Source: Curvularia clavata
Taxonomy: Eukaryota
DNA: 64,000 nucleotides
Reading direction: 5' to 3'
Assembly: GCA_023920165.1 (NCBI GenBank)
Contig: CP089275.1
Location: forward strand, 4,526,001 to 4,590,000
Positions 42,907 through 62,614 of the stretch are shown piece after piece. The notes beneath the pieces are model-generated. The model saw only the letters and a program-made list of their open reading frames with translations, was not told the DNA's origin and did no database searches. Position 1 is the stretch's first letter. Every line of letters starts with the position of its first letter. The translations under genes and the position numbers were made by a program.

Positions 42907-45549
42907 ATGGCCCGCTCAGATAAAGCGCATGGCTCCCCTACTCCACACTCCTCGAGCTCCGAGCAAGCTCCCGACCTCAGTATAACTACAGATGACAATG
43001 TGCACTTGCATGCAGCCGGCTACAACGAATCGCCCGAACGGGGCCTTATCCATAGCTTTGCGCGCTTTCGCTCCTCTCCCCTCGACTTTCTGCGCGAAGT
43101 ATCCCTTCACTTCTCAGGCACAGGATGGCGCTCTTTCGACCACCACATTGGCCAACCAGAGTTTTACTCGGGCTTCAGTGAGACCATGAAGGGAAGGGTG
43201 CTCAGCAGTCCAATCCTTGTCGCAAAAATACGCGAGCTGGCAAACAAGAGAATCGAGGTTGAAGCCAAAGAGGGATTGCTGGGCGAACAAGTGCTCAATG
43301 GTAGTTGTGGCGTAGGCGAGAACGACAGGAAATCAAAGAGGAGGGCCGAGATCGAAGAGTCGCTCATGCAGGTCAGCGAGAGCTGGACAGACTCGATGAT
43401 CTGTAAAATGGAAAGCAAGTCCTTCATAAGGGGCGCATACTACCTTGCCACACAACTTCTGACCAGGGCATACCACCAGGGTGTTCACGTTTCAAGTGAG
43501 GAAGTCCTACGGTTGCGTGCGGTAGCAGAGAAAGCAGCCAAGGACAAGCATTCGATAATCTTCCTTCCGTGCCATCGCTCACACGTCGACTATGTCTCTC
43601 TTCAGATCATCTGCTACAGACTAGGTCTCGCGCTGCCAACCGTTGTGGCTGGCGACAATCTAAATTTCCCAGTTGTTGGTTCGTTTTTACAGCATGCAGG
43701 CGCCATGTGGATACGGCGAAGCTTTGGAGATGATCAATTATACATCACGCTGGTCCAAGCATACATAGATACTTTGTTACGATGCGGATACAACTTGGAA
43801 TGCTTCGTCGAGGGAGGCAGGAGTCGAACTGGAAAGCTTCTGCCGCCCAAGTTTGGCATTTTGAGCTACATGCTCGACAGCGTTGCCAGTGGCAGAGTAG
43901 ATGATGCCATCATCTGTCCGGTTTCAACGCAGTACGATAAGGTCATTGAGGTTGAGTATGTCTCTAGGCGTTTTTCTTTTAGCAGCTGGAGATGAGAGCT
44001 AACAGCGAACAGTTCGTATATCAGTGAACTCCTTGGCCAGCCAAAGCCCAAAGAAAATCTCGTCGACTTTTTGTCTGCTTCGTCTGTCCTTTCCCTCAAG
44101 CTTGGTCGTGTAGACGTCCGTTTCCACGAGCCATGGTCACTCAAGTCATTCATCATACAGCAACGCGACCGCTTCTCCAAACTCCCCCAACAACTCGACA
44201 CTAAGGAAGAGCGACTCCGTATCCTTCGCACGTTGGGATACAAAGTGCTGTCAGAGATCAACGACGTCTCAGTCGTCATGCCCACTGCGCTTGTGGGTAC
44301 CGTCTTGCTCACGCTTCGCGGCCGCGGTGTTGGCAAATCCGAACTCATCCGACGCGTAGAGTGGCTCAGCGACCGTGTGAGAGCTCAAGGAGGCCGTGTA
44401 GCACACTTTGGCAACCTCCCCACGAGTGTCGTTGTCGATCGCGCACTCGAGGTCCTCGGTCCTGGACTCGTTGGTCTCGTCCCTGGTCTCCCAGAAGACA
44501 CTTTCTATGCCGTCGACCGATTCCAGCTCTCGTTCTACCGTAACATGACCATCCACCTATTTATCGAGCAGAGCCTTGTCAGTGCAGCACTATACACGCA
44601 CGTCAAGCAAGGCGGCGGACCCGAATACCAACGCATGTCCTATACCGATCTACGCGCCCAAGTCCATTTCCTTTCGCAGCTTTTCCGCGGCGAATTCATC
44701 TTTCCCACTGAAGGCCTTGACACCAACCTCACCAAAACCCTCCTCGGCCTCGAAAACGACGACGTCATCACTTTGACGCGCTCCTCCGAGCCCGACACCA
44801 GCAGCAACAGCAGCTCAGAGGAAGCCCCGAAAATCGAATGGATCGAGCTCTCCCCCACGGAACGCGCCCAAGGCCGCGAAAACTACGACTTTTACTGCTT
44901 CCTCATCTGGCCGTTCATCGAAGCCGCATGGCTCGGCGCAATCAGCTTGATGATGCTTACGCCGCCATCTACCATCACCGCCACTAATGCTGCTGCTACC
45001 ACACCGAAACCCAAGCCCAAATGGCTCGACCAAAAGAAAACCCAAGACCACGCCCAACTCTTGGGCAAAACCCTCTACCACCAAGGCGACCTCTCCTACT
45101 TCGAAGCCGTAAACAAAGAAACACTGAAAAACGCATACACGCGCTTCCAAGAAGAAGGCATGATTGTCGTTGCCAAATCCACTCAATCCACTGATAGTAG
45201 TAAAAAAGCAAAGAAGAATAATAAAACCGGAGCGAGTATCATCAGACTGGCGGATGAATGGGTCCCCCAACGGCGCGGGGATGGGGATAAGGGCATCGTG
45301 GCGAGTGGGCCGCTGTGGCGCTTCGCGGAGAGGATTAGTGCGAGCAGGCGCGAAGGAAAGAATCGGAGGGATGGCGCGACGGTGCAGACGAGGGTGTTGG
45401 GGTTGGTGGATTTGGTAGCAAAGGGGCTGTGGGAGGATGCTGCGGCGGTGTTTGAAGGGGGTGATGAGGATGACGTGGAGAGGGAAGGTGAGGAGGTGGA
45501 GACGAAGACGAAGAGTATGCGTAAGAGGGGGAATATGGCGAGGCTTTGA
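42907..45549 (+). CDS. PlsB/GNPAT-type glycerol-3-phosphate / DHAP acyltransferase with PTS1 (-ARL)
   Basis: Motifs HRSHVD, GAMWIRRS, FVEGGRSRTGK and PVSTQYD; intron about 43955-44012; C-terminus KRGNMARL*. Confidence 0.88.
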
Positions 45550-45643: not shown

Positions 45644-48414
45644 CTACGACTTGATAAGATTACCGCGTTCGTCGTCCGTTTCCTCTTCCTCACTGTCGGT
45701 TTCGTATTCGCTCTCCTCCTCGCTCTCATCTTCTTCTTCCTCGTCCGTCTCTTCTTCGTCCTCCGTGTCCGTCTCTTCCTCATCATCATCGTCGCCTTCT
45801 TCCTCCGCTAGCCAGTCATCGAGCGTCTTCTCCTTGAGCGGTGCTTTGGGCATACCGACACCCGCATCTCCACCCAAACCGTTCAAGCCTCGTGGGCTCA
45901 TGCTTTGATCGGCCATCATTCGCCCACTGCTGCCTGCCGCTGCATCTAGCCTGTCGGCCGCCGACATGTTCTTTGCAGTTTCATACGCCGACACGTAGTT
46001 TGACGAGGACGTCGACACAACTTCGTCGCGTAGCGCTGGATCTGGTTCATGGCCTTCTTTGACCCAGCGAGGCAGGTCTTCGTATCCTTTGAGTCCCCCG
46101 ACGCCACCTTCGTCGCCAACAACCAGGCTGGCACTTCCCAACACATAGTCTTTTCGCGTTTCACTTGGACTTGGAATGTGCGGCACGGGTTTGGGTGCGA
46201 GAAGAAGCAGTGAGGCGAGCTGTGTCGAGGTAGGCGTCGCGAGTAGTGCCTTGTATACGCGAGCACGGTCGCGGAGGTCATACGAAGTGTCGTATCTTAC
46301 CAACAAAAGAACGTAGTTGTACAATGCCTCGATGATATGTGGCTTCTCCTCCTCTTGGATATCGTTTTTCTGGGCGAGAGCATCGAGAGGCTCGTCTCTA
46401 AAACCACCTTGTTCTTCTTGGAGACCGTCCATTAGAGATGGGTTCGGCTTAGGCTCTTCTACCTTGGGTTCCGGAGGTGGGTTAGCCGCCAGGTGGTGCA
46501 CATAGACCTTGGCCGCCAACAACACAATCTGGAGCTTCGCTGGCTCTGCTTCATCAGCAAAACCTTTGACCAGGATACGGAGGACGTCTGCAGCAATGTT
46601 GTTCTCTGGATCAAGGCCAGCAAATTCTCCAACTAGCCAGATGATGCTTGCACGAGCCTGAGGGCTGGTGGCTGCATCAAGATGCTTTGCTAACCGGATA
46701 ACGGTCGTGCGATGGGCATCTGGATCCCGTTGGATCAAATGACGGATGACCTCCAGGGACTCAGCTACCAGATGGGCATCGGCAGAACCAATGTGCTTGA
46801 GCAGCAACTTCAGACATCTGGCTGAGGTCTGCGGACTGGTTGCAGGACTCTGCGAGCAACGTCCAATTGCGCGTACAGACTCTTTAACCAACGCTAGATC
46901 TAGACTGCCAGAGTGGGAGAAATGGCTCAACTCGGCAAGTATCAAACTTTGTAACCTGACGTGCGCATGAGGGAATATTAACGTAAGGAGCTCAAGCTTC
47001 AGCTGCCATATATGTGGCGCGTCGGTAGATCGTACTAAGAAATGCGTGTAGTACTTCACAAACGGCTCGGGGTGCGCCAAGCAGACCTGCACGATGTTGT
47101 ACAGTGCTACGTGCTGGATGTCTCCTGCCGACCGGAGTAGGGAGATCAGCGGTCCAATGGCTTGGGTCAGGTACTCAGGTGTGCCAAGATAGAGATAAGT
47201 CCTGGCTACCGCTATTACGACTGCAGCGTTTCGAGATTGGAGTAGCGATTGGCAGCCTTTTAGCAACAACTCCAGGTCAGGGTCTAGCACAGCAATTTCC
47301 TCCATGTCCTGCTCTTGCTCATCTTCTTCGGATTCACTCTCCGAATCATCATAGAAACCCTTTGTAGATTGCGTAAGTTTGCTGCCCGTCTTGACGCCAG
47401 CCAATTTCTTGACCTTCTTGGTTCGCCGGGGAAAGCATTTTCGTGCGTAAACCATCATCAATCTCAACGTAGCCAACTGTCCCCATTCGTCCATGTCGAC
47501 AAGTTTCCGTACCAAAGCACGATAATGCGGGTGTATGAGGTCCAAGCGATCCGGACATAGCTCCAGGAACGATGCCACAGCGGCTCCGGTGACAAAATAC
47601 TGCTTGTCTCCCAGCAACGTCGACAGATATTCCAGCAGCTGAGGTTCGGTATTGGGGTCCAGCCGGTAGCACTTTGGGATTGCCAACGCCGCTGCCCTCC
47701 TCACATATGGCGACATATCTCCAGCACCGCGCTTGATTCCCAGGCTCACAATCTGGCTGATGACTGGTACCCGTATGCTTGACATGACCCGCAATGCCAA
47801 TGCGCGCAATTGCGGGTTCGTGTCGGTGAGCGACTTTTGTATGGTATTGATAGAAAGAAGAGCGGTATCTGGTTCGTGCTCGGCATGGTGGAGAAGGTAT
47901 ATGTAAACGAGCTTCTTGACCTGGAGCGAGGGCGAGGCGACATTCTTGATTACATGGGAGAAAAAAGGTAGTGTTTGTGCGAGGGGTTGTCGGTACGACA
48001 TCTAGAGGGGCTACAGTCAGTTACTACACGTCCCAACGCGCGCCATCTGTACTGAGATGGACCGAGTTCATGGCGGGGCAGGCATACAGTAATGACCCTC
48101 CGGAGCCCTTCCAAGACATCGCGCTCGGATCGGCTGTCGAGAAGCTTCTTGAGCTGGCTTGAGGGAAGCTCCCTAGTGGGCGCTCGGCGGACATTGCTGG
48201 CATCGCGGGCAGCTTCGAGGGTAAGGTCGCGCGCTGCAGAAAGAGACCAGTGAGCAAAGCTGGATGGATGCATTGTAACTGCGCGGAGCAATTACATATT
48301 CAAAGCCCCTGGGGCGCAGAGGGCAAGTGTACAGGAATTTCAGAAAGAAAGGAAAACAGAGAAAGGCGCCATACCTGTCTCCAACAAGCTCGATATCCGA
48401 CTGATGGATTCCAT
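45644..48414 (-). CDS. APL6: AP-3 adaptor complex beta subunit
   Basis: MESISRISSLLET|ARDLTL.., VKKLVYIYL, ALLSINTIQKSL, DMSPYVR, DMDEWGQ, YDTSYDLRDRAR and an acidic tail; two 5' introns. Confidence 0.93.
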
Positions 48415-51765: not shown

Positions 51766-53307
51766 ATGGTTGTTGATCGCGTTCTGCCCGAGAGGAGGAA
51801 CCCTCTGCTCGAGCCCACCGACTCGACGGCTGGTACGTACACGCCACCCATCTCGTCCCATCTCCCTGCGCGACTAACGAGCCTGCGCAGTCGAAATTCT
51901 CATTGAGAGACGCCGCTTGGGACAGACAAACCTGGGCGTCAAGGCTGGTGCCGCGGGCATCACAAACGCGACAAAGCCCGAGAACATGGGGACTTTCGAT
52001 TACGCGCACCTTCGGGTTCCGTTGCCAAAAGACCTCACAGGATCCGGCATCTTTTCGCGAAACCGCATGGCCGCTTACCCAGAGTCCTATTTCTTGATGG
52101 TACGCCATGCAAAACAATCAACCAGCGCATTGCCGTGAGCGCAGGCAGCGACTAACGCGACAAACAGCGACGCAGTAGCGACGGCTACATCAGCGCAACC
52201 GGAATGTTCAAGGCTGCGTTCCCATGGGCTTCGCTCCAGGAAGAAGAACTCGAGCGCAAGTACCAGAAGACATTTCCTTCTGCCGGCGCTGAAGAGGTAG
52301 CCGGAAGCGTGTGGATTGCGCCAGAGGAGGGTAAGTTTTTTCCTTCACTTGCTAATTTGCGCGTTCTGAAGCTGACACGATTCACTTAGCTCTTGCCCTG
52401 TCTGAGGAATACTCCATGCGCCACTGGATAGAGGCGCTCCTCGACCCCGCGCCCATCGAAAAGGGCAACAAGGACAAGTCCAACACCCATATCCAAATGC
52501 CTCCGAGATTTGATGTTAAGAACGCTCAACCCGCTGTTCTTCCCACACCTGGCCTTCGCGCGACTCGCGCGCGCTCCGCCCGATCGGTCTCACCTGGCAA
52601 GGCCATGACTCCGGGCCGCAAGTATGCCACTCCACGCAAGCCCCGCACCACAAGGAGTGCTGCGAAGCCAGATGCAGACGATGTTTTCAGGCCTATTGAA
52701 GCCGTTACCCCATCAACTGCGCTTCAAAACAGCATCGCTAAACACTCCACACCGGCGGAATCAATTACGTCATCGGTTGAGGGTGAGGTGAAGGAGATAG
52801 AACAAGAAGTCGAGAAGGCGCTCGATGCTGTGACCAAGCCAGAACCAGAGCGCGAGGTTCAGGAGGGTACTGTTCACATTGAAGTGCAACAAACCGTTGA
52901 GACGAACGGTGACACAGAGAAGACAAGCACTAGTGTAACAGTCGATGTGCCCCATGATCACGCTGCGCTCCCAGAGCCAGAAGACCCGACGGCTATGATT
53001 GAAGAAGCCAAGCGTATGGTTGCTGAGGCGCAAAGACTGGAAGGCGGTTCGCCTTCTCTCGTCGCCCGAACAACGAAGCGCGGAATCGAGGACGTCCTAG
53101 ATGAGCAGGACTTGGCCGAGGAGCGCCTGAACAAGCTTGCAAAGGTTGCGTACACAACTGAGCAGAAAATGACAAAGGAAAAGGTCACACGGAGAGCACT
53201 TGTCGGTTTGGGAGTCATGGCAGCCATTGGGTAAGTCTACGAAAACTCGCATCAAGTGCGCACCAGCTAATACTCTCAACAGAACGGCCTTCCAATACTT
53301 TGTATAG
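51766..53307 (+). CDS. bqt4: Bqt4-like APSES/KilA-N inner nuclear membrane protein with C-terminal TM anchor
   Basis: YFLM|RRSSDGYISATGMFKAAFPWA..GSVWIAPEEALALSEEY (APSES-like), and a tail anchor RRALVGLGVMAAIGTAFQYFV*; four introns. Confidence 0.82.
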
Positions 53308-53974: not shown

Positions 53975-56211
53975 TCATATACCCTTACTTCCCCCTTCAC
54001 CAGCCAACTCACCCACCTTCCGCACTGCCTCTTCGTAATCATCAAAGGCATATATCGGCAGTTTCGCCTCGGCCAACACCTTCTGTCCCAGTTCCTCATT
54101 CGTCCCCCTCAAGCGTACCACCACCGGCTTCTCAACCCCGACATCTCGAAACGCGAGTATGATCCCTTCGGCAATCATATCGCAAAGCGTGAGCCCACCA
54201 AAGATATTCACAAAGACGACGCTGACACGGGGATCAGCGAGAAGCAGCTTGAAACTCGTTTTGATGGTCGCAGACGTGGCTTTACCGCCTGTGTCGAGGA
54301 AGTTTGCAGCAGACGTGGATGAGGGTGGGGAAGAGAGGCGCGAGGCAAGAGTGTCGATGGTGTTGAGGGCGAGGCCTGCGCCGTTGACGAGAGTGCCAAC
54401 CAGGTTTTTGGGCTTTGGTGAAGACGAGGATGATTCGAGTGGTATGTATACGATCCCAGCTTCTTCTGCTTCGCGGTCGGCGGCAGTGAGGGCTGTCTCG
54501 TCACGTAGGGCGTGCAGGTCGACTTGTCGCTTTGCGGATTTGAAGGCTGCGTCGTCGAAGAAGAGGTAAGGGTCGTAGAAGAGGAGCTCGTCGCTTGAGA
54601 CTGATAGGGCGAGCTTGAGGTGGGCGTCTATGGCTTCGTGGGTTGTGTACAGGTTCCAGAGATTGTGGATAGCTTGCACGAGTTGAGATTTGGACTTGGG
54701 TGGGAGAGCGGAGAGTTGCATGTGGGCGGTTGCGGCAGCGATGGCGGACGGGCTGGGGCCGGTGCGGTAGTCGAAGGGGAAGCGGCGAACACGGTGGGAC
54801 AGTTGAGAGGATTCGGCTGTCGGAGCGGCGATGATGGAGGGAGAGCGGGCGGAGCGGGCGGGGGAAATTCCCAGGTAGTGGGTTGACGGGGAGCCTTCTG
54901 GGGGAATGCCAAGGTCGATGCCAAATGATTCAAGAAGCTTTGTCGATTGTTCTTTTGTGAGGTGGAGTGAGCGTGTTTGCAGAGATGGGCCCGATGAAGA
55001 GGAACTTAGAACAACAGGCCTTCTCCTCAGAGATGTATGATAGGAGCGGCGTTGCTGGGCTGCTGACTTTTCCTGGAAGCTGTCAGCACATGCAGAGTAC
55101 ATGCGTTTTTTTTCCCGAAGGTATGAGCCTACAATTTTTCTTACGTTGCGACCAGACTTTGCAAGAATATCTTTCATCACTCCCCCAAACTTTGCTGGGT
55201 GATCAACCATGGTCACGCCAGCACTCTCCAAGGCCTTGTATTTTGACGCGGCAGTGCCTTCTCCAAGGCCTACCCAAGCTCCAGCATGGCCCATAACCTT
55301 GCCGGATGGTGCTTGGAAACCTCCAATGACAGCGGCAATTGGTTTGGGATTTTGAGCACGCTTTCTGTAGTCTCTAATCCAGTCTGCCGCCTCTTCTTCG
55401 GTGGTGCCACCAAGTTCGCCGACGATGATAATAGCCTCTGTATCTTCATCATGCTCAAATACTTTGAGAGCATCCACGAAGTTTGTGCCTGCTATCACGT
55501 CTCCGCCAACTGCAATACATAAACTCTGTCCGAGCCCAGCTCTGGTCAACGAGGCCACAGTCTCGTAGGAGAGTGTCCCGGACTTTGCTACAACGCCAAT
55601 GTGACCGGGGGAAAAGGTGGGCAAGGGTTGAAAGCCAATCCTGCATTTTCCAATGGCCGAGATTATACCTGGGGCATTTGCGCCTACAAGTCGTGATTTT
55701 GACTGGGATTGTAGCATGGAGTGGATCTCGTGGATATGTCAGCCTTTGTTTCTAAAATGTTGTCTGGAACTATGTTACTCACTCTCATCATGTCATGGAG
55801 TGGTATGTGTTCAGCCACGGCAACGATAAGCGGCACCTCTGCCTCTATTGCTTCTTCAATTGCAGCAGTTGCTTGATGAGCAGCAACGTAGATTCCCGTG
55901 GCATCGGGCTTGAGTTGCTCCATGGCTGCTCTTACCGAGGGCAGAACGGGCAGTCCCAGATGCTCTCCTGAGCCATTGGGCTTCACACCGCCGACTACGT
56001 TTGTCCCCCATTCTATCGACTCTTTTGCATTGGCTGTAGCCTGCTTGCCTGTGAATCCCTGGAAGATGACACGGGTGTGGGAGCCAATCTTGAGGTTGTG
56101 GATGGTATGGTCGTAGTTTGTGCGCTTGGCTGTGGTAGAAAACAAGGCTTGCCGTATCCGGTGCCCAGGGCTCCGTAGCCTACACAGGGTGTGTGCCTGG
56201 GGACAGATCAT
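53975..56211 (-). CDS. Succinyl-CoA synthetase alpha subunit fused to a degenerate beta subunit (mitochondrial)
   Basis: Alpha: VIFQGFTGKQAT, EHIPLHDM, KSGTLSYE, GELGG, MGHAGA. Beta: GTLVNGAGLA, ANFLDTGG, VNIFGG, VVVRLRGTN. Introns 55727-55782 and 55073-55132; presequence-like N-terminus. Confidence 0.9.
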
Positions 56212-57258: not shown

Positions 57259-58881
57259 ATGCTTCCTCACCTGCTCCTCCTTGCCGGCCTCGTCCCCTGC
57301 GCCTACACATTATCAATACCACGTCTTCCTTCTCTTGCAAGCTTCGCTGCTGCAGGCCGCTGGCAACAACAGGAGCCGCTTCAAGACACTCTTGATGCCT
57401 GGATACAACACGAAGAGCGCATTGCGCTAGAAAAGCTGCTCGCCAACGTTGCGCCTGGAGGCAGAAATGTCCAAGGCAAAGGTGTGGCTGAGGGCACAGT
57501 CGTTGCGAGCCCCTCTCAAGATGGCCCCGATTACTGGTTTCAATGTAAGTATCTCAACAACGTCATCTGCAACGCGTGCTAATTGTCACAAGGGGTCCGC
57601 GACGCTGCCATCACCATGGATACCCTCGTCCATGTCTACGCTGACGACCCCTCGTCTTCGCGCGCATCTGCTCTGTCCATTATCCTTGATGCATACACCT
57701 CCCTCCAAAGCGAAATTCAGCACACTTCAAACCCGTCGGGTACATTCGACGACCTCTCTGGATTAGGTGAGCCCAAGTTCCGCGTGGACGGAAAGCCATT
57801 CACCGGTTCGTGGGGAAGACCACAACGCGACGGGCCAGCTCTCCGCGCACTGACGCTCATGCACTACCTCCGTGAATACAATGCATCACATCCTTCGTTG
57901 TGGAGCTCTCCCAACTCGGAGGACTTTTTTGGGACTTTTTATACTGCCGAGATGCCTCCGCGCAGTATCATCAAAGCAGATCTCGAGTACGTGAGCCACT
58001 TCTGGAACCAGTCTGGATTCGACCTCTGGGAAGAAGTTGAGGGTCTGCATTTCTTCACCCTCATGGTCAGCGCCAGAAGTCTGAGGGAAGGCAGTCATCT
58101 TGCAAGATCCTTTGGCGATGCAGGTGCGGCAGATTGGTACCAAGAACAAGCTGGGTACGCTGAGAACCTGTTGCGCAAGTTCTGGAATGCACAAAAGGGA
58201 CATCTCGTTGAGACGCTATGGAGCAAGAGGAGCGGTCTGGACTGTGGATTGCTTCTTGGCTCTTTGCACGCCCTTCCCAAGACCGCATCTGAGGATCATG
58301 CTGTCTATCCGCCATGGTCGGATGAGATTCTGATTTCCCTCCTCGCTTTGACTCGCGATCAGCGTGACCGTTTCCCCATCAACAGCAGCCCAGCCGACCA
58401 AGACGACGAAGACGAGGTGGATGAAACATCGTTTCAAGGAACGGGCATTGGCCGCTACCCTGAAGATGTATACGATGGTTACGGAAACTCGAATCGTGGT
58501 GGAAACCCATGGTTCCTATGCACATCCTCTGCCGCTGAGATCCTATACCGCACTGCGTCGCACATAATATCCACCGGTAGTTTGACCATTACACCGGTCG
58601 GTCTTCCCTTTTACGAATCGCTTCTTGCTAGCTCCACTCTTGACGTCGACCTCGGTACCTTTGGCCCTTCTGATGCCCTCTTCCACTCGGTCATCGAGCG
58701 CCTACAGAGTGCCGGTGACGAGTTTCTCCAAGTCGTGAAGACACATGTTGATACCGAAGGCAGCATGAGTGAGCAATTTGACCGGGTGACTGGGTACATG
58801 AGGGGCGCCGAAGATTTGACCTGGAGTTACGGTGCTTTCCTGCAGGCTGCTAGAGCTCGAAAGATCTCTATGCAGCCCTGA
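57259..58881 (+). CDS. GH15 glucoamylase without starch-binding domain
   Basis: Signal peptide; VASPS, YWFQW|VRDAA, LGEPKF, WGRPQRDGPALRA, FDLWEEV, IGRYPEDVYDG, SEQFDR and DLTWSYG; the protein ends without a CBM20. Confidence 0.93.

Positions 58882-60589: not shown

Positions 60590-62614
<2,025 letters not shown>

Follow-up and report, generated by a model that had tools for sequence, protein, structure and literature searches.

On the minus strand of the 64,000-nucleotide stretch of the Curvularia clavata genome analyzed here (contig CP089275.1, positions 4,526,001 to 4,590,000; hereafter the window), a gene running from 56211 to 53975 encodes a 702-aa protein in which the alpha subunit of succinyl-CoA synthetase (SCS) is fused to the beta subunit, in the order alpha-beta. 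Its three-exon structure was read off the sequence, and a database comparison found the spliced translation identical, letter for letter, to P0001, named at NCBI 'uncharacterized protein yc1106_03322 [Curvularia clavata]' (the species belongs to Pleosporales, Dothideomycetes, according to a taxonomy look-up). The Pfam and NCBIfam matches across the three exons define this fusion and, with it, a beta half that is short at its N-terminal end (Table 1). The alpha half begins with an Arg-rich, presequence-like N-terminus (residues 1-32) and displays, within exon 2, the motifs SGT (192-194), GELGG (with Glu247) and the phosphohistidine loop MGHAGA, whose His290 is encoded at 55288..55286.

The missing ATP-grasp lid and the predicted fold

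By the superfamily's nomenclature, E. coli SCS is written alpha(1,2)/beta(3,4,5), with subdomain 3 being the ATP-grasp lid (PMC11494057), and the C. clavata protein reads 1-2-linker-4'-5 in the same terms. A first-pass annotation of this DNA had placed the beta part at 53975..54960 of the minus strand and described it as ~330 aa long, with the chain passing from its first helix almost directly into the region beyond the lid. Both the coordinates and the strand are right, as the interval, which lies within exon 3, starts at Leu375 of LHLTKEQ and ends with the stop codon, and the distance from LHL to the C-terminus is 330 aa. Just 12 residues (DLGIPPEGSPST) lie between the helix (377-386) and HYLGISPARSARSPSII, two points that are separated by ~89 residues in canonical beta chains, as counted along the E. 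coli sequence. The Lys/GGRGK segment sits between the same two points in the canonical beta-alpha fusions P0187 and P0189. The motif NGAGLA, which follows LHL by 195 residues in the C. clavata protein, is found at position 253 in both of these fusions, and this spacing agrees with a reduction of the ~89-residue stretch to 12. The correspondence of the helices rests on the reading of LHL...LL..(F/Y)G(I/V) together with the helix of the structural model, MAFFT having placed the short N-terminal beta helix on the canonical one only roughly or not at all.

Profile comparisons agree with this picture. The hidden Markov model (HMM) search proposed with the first-pass annotation returned no Pfam ATP-grasp_2 match in exon 3 at E<=1 and a Ligase_CoA match at 3e-20. 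The NCBIfam SCS-beta model was matched only over profile positions 142-386 of 388, with 178 bits against a cut-off of 370, and the two alpha exons, which were scored separately with the SCS-alpha model, reached 208.7 and 93.7 against a cut-off of 336. PDB beta chains can be aligned with it only from residue 139 on in E. coli and from residue 156 on in human SUCLA2. In the alignment with 1jkj_B, along which the E. coli beta numbering was counted, Glu197, Asn199 and Asp213 of that chain are opposite His488, Lys490 and Asp504, so that EINPL reads HLKLA. The ligase motifs of the C-terminal region (NGAGLA, NFLDTGG, NIFGG and RLRGTN), by contrast with the nucleotide site, were reported as intact in the first-pass annotation and are indeed so.

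We compared an AlphaFold (AF2) model, built on 49 relatives, with known structures using Foldseek. The model is confident (predicted local-distance difference test, pLDDT, 84.8; predicted TM-score, pTM, 0.85), with disorder confined to residues 1-28 and 340-371, both of which have pLDDT values below 50, and the protein's own alpha and beta halves are packed together in it at that same pTM of 0.85. Superposition of the alpha half on its human and pig counterparts gives TMt 0.95 and a root-mean-square deviation of ~1.6 Å. Of the ~393 columns in beta from pig, human or E. coli, the beta half covers ~303 (TMt 0.58-0.65), leaving ~90 unmatched, and the superposition displays no complete ATP-grasp domain. 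The proposal that the ATP-grasp nucleotide site has been lost from the beta half holds for the lid (subdomain 3), which is excised, but does not extend to the whole fold, as the rest of the ATP-grasp domain (subdomain 4, residues 402-560) is still confidently folded. This subdomain 4 remnant has lost the metal and catalytic ligands.

In relation to the SCSs, such as E. coli SucCD, human SUCLG1 with SUCLA2 or SUCLG2, and yeast Lsc1/Lsc2, the protein shares the full-length alpha subunit with its phosphohistidine loop (the alpha half aligns with human SUCLG1 over residues 35-327 with 278 bits), the beta C-terminal domain and the larger ATP-grasp subdomain, and its alpha segment adjoins canonical fungal LSC1 in the tree described below. 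Unlike them, it has both subunits on one chain, a deleted lid, replacements of the equivalents of Glu197 and Asn199, and the invariant changes AEH, GAN.PG, MGHAGAW and TGGKAT. Set against what defines a canonical SCS, the alpha features (CoA_binding, Ligase_CoA and the His of MGHAGA) and the beta Ligase_CoA domain are all present; the ATP-grasp domain and the residues of the nucleotide site (site II) are missing, and the equivalog cut-offs are not reached. The contention that this is not a normal SCS of the tricarboxylic acid (TCA) cycle is borne out, in that the nucleotide site is structurally absent by Pfam, NCBIfam, PDB alignment and Foldseek alike.

Table 1. Coordinates of the fusion gene, its parts and the neighboring reading frames in the window
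Feature	Coordinates	Strand	Details
Exon 1	55783..56211	-	Residues 1-143; alpha-half CoA_binding domain after the N-terminal segment (Pfam CoA_binding 4.3e-19)
Intron 1	55727..55782	-	56 nt, GTGAGT...AG, phase 0
Exon 2	55145..55726	-	Residues 144-337; alpha Ligase_CoA domain (Pfam Ligase_CoA 9.8e-24)
Intron 2	55073..55144	-	72 nt, GTAAGA...CAG, phase 0; donor at 55144 used by P0001
Exon 3	53975..55072	-	Stop codon included
Linker	54968..55072	-	Residues 338-372; disordered in the model
Beta-half first helix	54917..54967	-	Residues 373-389 (LHLTKEQSTKLLESFGI); homologous to the SCS beta N-terminal helix; model helix 377-386
Junction	54881..54916	-	Residues 390-401; place where the ATP-grasp lid (Lys, GGRGK loop) would stand
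ATP-grasp remnant (subdomain 4)	54404..54880	-	Residues 402-560; pLDDT mostly >85
Beta C-terminal Ligase_CoA domain (subdomain 5)	53978..54403	-	Residues 561-702; Pfam 3e-20; NGAGLA, NFLDTGGKAT, NIFGG, RLRGTN
Stop codon TGA	53975..53977	-	Read from the sequence
His488 codon	54622..54620	-	Faces E. coli beta Glu197
Lys490 codon	54616..54614	-	Faces E. coli beta Asn199
GH15 glucoamylase match	57259..58881	+	Neighboring reading frame
Glycerol-3-phosphate acyltransferase (GPAT), C-terminal region	44071..45549	+	Neighboring reading frame
Adaptin N-terminal region match	45644..48001	-	Neighboring reading frame
GH11 fragment, weak match	61711..62202	+	Neighboring reading frame

Splicing of intron 1 brings together the strings HDMMR and IHSML, which are continuous in P0001 and in 19/19 orthologues of the first alignment. 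The donor of intron 2 is ambiguous, since use of GTAGGC at 55132 would shorten the intron to 60 nt, adding VRKI with the frame kept; four extra residues at this point are present in most orthologues (e.g., NVRKIEQSA in Alternaria), and it is the disordered linker that they affect. No second SCS-like gene was found by tblastn within the 64-kb window, and the surroundings of the gene within ~10 kb give no sign of a metabolic gene cluster and no functional hint. Directly downstream, at 52416..53234 of the plus strand, is a 272-aa reading frame that has no Pfam match, a high content of Pro, Thr, Glu and Lys and a hydrophobic end.

Conservation, origin and possible processing of the family

The relatives of the C. 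clavata protein that we aligned comprise 19 sequences from Dothideomycetes, 14 from Eurotiomycetes, nine from Sordariomycetes, three from Leotiomycetes, one from a Lecanoromycete and three unassigned (49 in all; classes were assigned by hand from source names, with a lineage look-up for a few species only). The best 120 homologues of the exon 2-3 reading frame, which extend down to 53% identity, are all fusions of ~700 aa or fragments of them from Dothideomycetes. The same architecture, with the order of the halves checked, was listed by a search begun from a distant relative in many species of Aspergillus, A. fumigatus and A. terreus among them, and in Penicillium, Talaromyces, Coccidioides and Paracoccidioides, and further in Daldinia, Xylaria, Chaetomium, Helotiales and lichen-forming fungi. 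The deletion, for which a comparison of orthologues had been suggested, is common to 49/49 relatives from five Pezizomycotina classes and hence not private to this strain. All of them have a junction of 13-28 residues (positions 386 to 402), and the patterns GG[RK]G[KR] and E[IVL]NP, which we sought in the same set, are found in none (0/49 each).

Conservation is distributed very unevenly along the chain. The motifs MGHAGA (with His290), GExGG (with its Glu), SGTL.YE, NGAGLA, NFLD.GGKAT, N.FGG and R.RGT are invariant in 49/49, and the mean identity to the C. clavata protein is 0.73-0.80 in the alpha domains, 0.65 in the beta C-domain, 0.39 in the ATP-grasp remnant and 0.36 in the linker. The columns that face the ATP-grasp ligands are variable, with E 29, H 6, S 5 and T 4 at position 488 (Glu197), R 15, K 8, S 7 and N 4 at position 490 (Asn199), and G 15, D 9 and S 9 at position 504 (Asp213). 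The invariance of the motifs of the CoA site (site I), set against the variability of these columns, shows that site I is under strong purifying selection and that site II is gone. We accordingly read the loss of the lid, on this comparative evidence, as old and selected, not as decay.

The family is further marked by invariant or nearly invariant changes of its own, namely AEH (with His135) for TEG, GAN(A/C/S)PG for GPNCPG, MGHAGAW, LAMNT, TGGKAT (with Lys601; GGGAT in canonical beta) and FGGLT. Residue 161 (55675..55677 of the minus strand) is the Ala of GANAPG, which occupies the place of the Cys in canonical GPNCPG; the C123-alpha structures of E. coli (2nu6-2nua) carry their mutation at this Cys. 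In this column, 21 of the relatives have A, 15 have C and 13 have S, from which it follows that a thiol is not required at this position.

An exhaustive profile-free search returned 11,991 matches at E<=0.001, of which the best 150 were inspected. Among these are fusions with the opposite order of the halves (beta'-alpha) and no ATP-grasp_2 match, namely P0137, P0150 and P0162; the named relatives of P0137 are Taphrina deformans and Savitreella phatthalungensis, both of Taphrinomycotina. The ATP-grasp_2 profile had no match in the beta'-alpha forms P0137, P0150, P0271 and P0272. Less reduced forms are also found: P0276 from the Fusarium solani complex (P0276-P0278 are alike) has the alpha-beta order and a partial ATP-grasp_2 match (profile positions 31-196, 38 bits), retaining the 'VVIKPQV' strand and lacking GGRGK and EINPL; P0297 from the lichen fungus Xanthoria steineri is a beta-alpha fusion with the whole of ATP-grasp_2 (167 bits, profile positions 2-201); and P0275, likewise beta-alpha, has an apparently truncated N-terminus and 137 bits over profile positions 63-201. 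Two Taphrinomycotina proteins, P0274 from Savitreella phatthalungensis and P0273 from a second relative, are 67% identical over 775 residues and bear an adenylate-kinase domain in frame after the lidless beta'-alpha module (residues 545-769 in P0274 and 645-873 in P0273). The best solved relatives of this fused kinase domain are the AK3 GTP:AMP phosphotransferases, at 201 bits, with other adenylate kinases at <=176. Such a kinase fusion is found in 2/6 Taphrinomycotina-type proteins in hand and in 0/49 Pezizomycotina members.

A maximum-likelihood tree built from 47 alpha segments places all the fused fungal forms, the permuted and lichen ones included, in one clade (support 100/98), within which the C. 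clavata type is monophyletic (97/88). The neighbors of this clade are, in order, P0162 with P0188, then P0178 and then the animal alpha subunits; P0178 is a canonical basidiomycete LSC1, and the named matches among the 120 listed for it are all canonical alpha subunits of basidiomycetes. The sister group of the fused fungal forms is thus a divergent pair, in which P0162, of 672 aa, is a beta'-alpha fusion that has no ATP-grasp_2 match and P0188, of 352 aa, is a stand-alone alpha subunit featuring GANSPG and MFGHAGAIW. These relationships indicate that the family is an old fungal paralogue of mitochondrial SCS that has undergone permutation. The lid has been lost to varying extents in different lineages, and the tree, in which the fused subgroups are not resolved, leaves the number of losses undecided. 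Compared with the C. clavata protein, the permuted or less reduced fungal relatives (P0137, P0271, P0273, P0274, P0276, P0297 and P0275) share the single alpha clade, the beta C-domain signature and a motif before the downstream module resembling those at which MPP (the mitochondrial processing peptidase) cuts, and they differ in the order of the modules and in the degree of ATP-grasp loss.

Shuffling of subdomains has also been described for the NDP-forming acyl-CoA synthetases (ACDs) of the same superfamily, in which archaeal ACDs combine an alpha [1-2-5] with a beta [3-4] chain and Nmar_0206 reads [1-2-5-4-3] (PMC11494057). The C. clavata protein resembles the ACDs, as characterized there, in having subdomains 1, 2 and 5 on one chain and a swinging His loop between two helix N-termini, and we recovered weak ACD-like matches, including 2csu_A (an ACD-alpha-like chain) at 3.1e-05 and a weak match to Pfam Ligase_CoA_2. 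Unlike the ACDs, it has kept subdomain 4 without 3 and is not known to have a separate lid or ATP-grasp partner, and by the tree it descends from fungal SCS and not from ACDs. Of the five subdomains expected of an ACD, subdomains 1, 2 and 5 are found in this chain, subdomain 4 is degenerate and subdomain 3 is absent.

In the joint between the two halves, residues 340-372 include six Arg, ten Ser and no acidic residue, and two motifs recur (54965..55054 of the minus strand): Q344-R-R346-(S/G)-(Y/F/I/M/L)-H349-T350 and R371-x-L373, the latter within R.L(H/Y)L. R346 is conserved in 49/49 relatives, R371 in 48/49, and H349 and T350 in 47/49; the first motif contains RSY in the C. clavata protein and RGY or RGF in most relatives. 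The permuted Taphrinomycotina forms display RRGMHT, RRQFHT or KRTFST before the alpha half instead. We consider the linker probably to be the retained presequence of whichever module is downstream, which is the beta half here. In yeast Arg5,6, MPP is described as cutting within an internal presequence-like segment, with RSY and RGY as candidate R-2 sites (PMC8734313). Given the conserved RSY/RGY motif in a disordered linker, which is like those Arg5,6 sites, it may be that the fusion is made as a composite mitochondrial precursor, which MPP would cut into two chains after import. It shares with the composite MPP-cut precursors Arg5,6 and Atp25 the two linked modules, the disordered, basic and acid-free joint and the R-x-aromatic motif; internal cutting, described for Arg5,6, is putative here. 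The protein itself is probably mitochondrial.

Predicted chemistry and competing explanations

The partial reactions of SCS that involve CoA, phosphate and succinate proceed without nucleotide. In the full cycle of SCS and its relatives, as outlined in PMC11494057, the swinging-loop His is phosphorylated at the ATP-grasp site and the phosphate is carried ~30 Å to the CoA site, where an acyl-phosphate and then an acyl-CoA are formed, and the ATP-grasp lid is important for ATP binding and for the transfer to the loop. As site I is fully kept and site II appears unable to work, we tentatively favor, at a probability of roughly 40%, the reading that the fusion carries out just that half of the SCS reaction which needs no nucleotide, in line with the NTP-independent acyl-CoA/acyl-phosphate chemistry that the first-pass annotation offered as one possibility. 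Site I comprises the pocket for CoA, the ends of the two phosphate-binding helices, the swinging His290 together with Glu247, and the beta C-domain that binds the carboxylate; at site II, the lid is deleted and the residues that hold the Mg-nucleotide and the phosphohistidine there are replaced. The enzyme would then be predicted to catalyze acyl-CoA + Pi (inorganic phosphate) <-> acyl-phosphate + CoA, followed by acyl-phosphate + His <-> carboxylate + His~P. A reversal of this half-reaction with a second carboxylate would make the cycle self-contained and result in the transfer of CoA between acids via the phosphohistidine; otherwise, the phosphate would be lost to water, amounting to a phosphate-dependent cleavage of the thioester. 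Were the precursor cut by MPP, the separate alpha' and beta' chains would be expected to sit together as in SCS.

Several observations weigh against this reading. We know of no precedent for a phosphohistidine-based CoA transferase, and a literature search for activity, localization or processing data on any member found none. The AK3-type kinase fused to the lidless enzyme in two Taphrinomycotina relatives points to a link with nucleotides. A Glu is retained at the Glu197 position in 29/49 members, and 9/49 have a weak ATP-grasp_2 match (best E 1.1e-5), which in the two members inspected is limited to profile positions 108-196 (P0121) and 93-197 (P0291), so that the ATP-grasp remnant may have some residual role. 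Finally, the invariant changes near the active-site motifs suggest that the substrate may not be succinate.

The main alternative is that the protein is still an NDP-phosphorylating or NTP-using ligase (acting with nucleoside di- or triphosphates), with the nucleotide held in trans by another module that exchanges phosphate with His290, for which an adenylate-kinase or AK3-type enzyme, a nucleoside-diphosphate kinase or a canonical beta ATP-grasp would be candidates. The in-frame AK3-like kinase in P0274 and P0273 and the invariant phosphohistidine loop speak for such an arrangement, as does the reported exchange of phosphate between NDP kinase and SCS. We nevertheless regard it as unlikely: the kinase fusion, the single observation by which the family is tied to nucleotides, is found in a third of the Taphrinomycotina-type proteins and in none of the Pezizomycotina members and may mean co-import or co-expression alone, and a canonical beta subunit in trans would be geometrically unlikely, with the protein's own beta' packed on alpha' in the model. 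A more specific form, in which an AK3/adenylate-kinase-type P-loop module (fused in Savitreella-like yeasts and separate elsewhere) replaces the ATP-grasp as site II, has only a slim chance of being correct; if true, such a P-loop site II would give fungal mitochondria a new way of phosphorylating at the substrate level.

The same anatomy that underlies our preferred reading would also fit a phosphate-dependent acyl-CoA hydrolase or buffer, in which succinyl-CoA or a related thioester is drained via an acyl-phosphate and a hydrolyzing phosphohistidine, for instance, to control the CoA pool or protein succinylation. Such an enzyme would need no second substrate and no partner, yet it would waste the energy of the thioester, which is hard to square with retention across a subphylum, and canonical SCS is not known to hydrolyze its phosphohistidine quickly; we deem it distinctly doubtful. 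Less probable again is a non-catalytic pseudo-enzyme serving as a sensor of CoA or acyl-CoA or as a scaffold that pairs with canonical subunits, one of the suggestions of the first-pass annotation. It is common for pseudo-enzymes to have lost one of two active sites, and the SCS-like N-terminal domain of bacterial Pat acetyltransferases provides a precedent. This suggestion is, however, weakened by the invariance in 49/49 relatives of His290, Glu247 and the phosphate-binding and carboxylate-site motifs, which is more than binding needs; the catalytic His and the phosphate motifs, whose loss would characterize an SCS-like pseudo-enzyme, are in place, and pairing with canonical subunits is unnecessary for a protein whose alpha and beta halves are co-inherited and pack on each other. 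There is next to no chance that the gene is decaying, that the deletion is private to the strain or that the gene model is an artefact; only the deletion itself and the ambiguous donor of intron 2 (which alters just four linker residues) could be cited for this. A frame open over 702 codons that equals the independent annotation, a confident model and a deletion shared by every one of the 49 relatives led us to reject these readings, that of a pseudogene included.

The relatives carry database labels such as 'succinyl-CoA ligase subunit alpha' or 'SCS-like', and a literature search, from which subscription journals were largely absent, found nothing on the lid deletion, the permuted relatives or the function, with some papers using the annotation name alone. 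Metabolic models may consequently count the gene as a second TCA enzyme, which is very probably wrong. SCS is the textbook two-site enzyme with a swinging phosphohistidine, and here one of its sites has been removed and the other is under strong constraint across Pezizomycotina, a subphylum that includes Aspergillus, Penicillium, Coccidioides, Alternaria and Bipolaris. If the fusion is indeed a phosphohistidine CoA transferase or a phosphate-dependent thioesterase, it would represent a new reaction type for the superfamily and an unrecognized step in how fungi metabolize organic acids or CoA. The permuted relatives, with their graded loss of the ATP-grasp domain, offer a natural series on what the lid is needed for.

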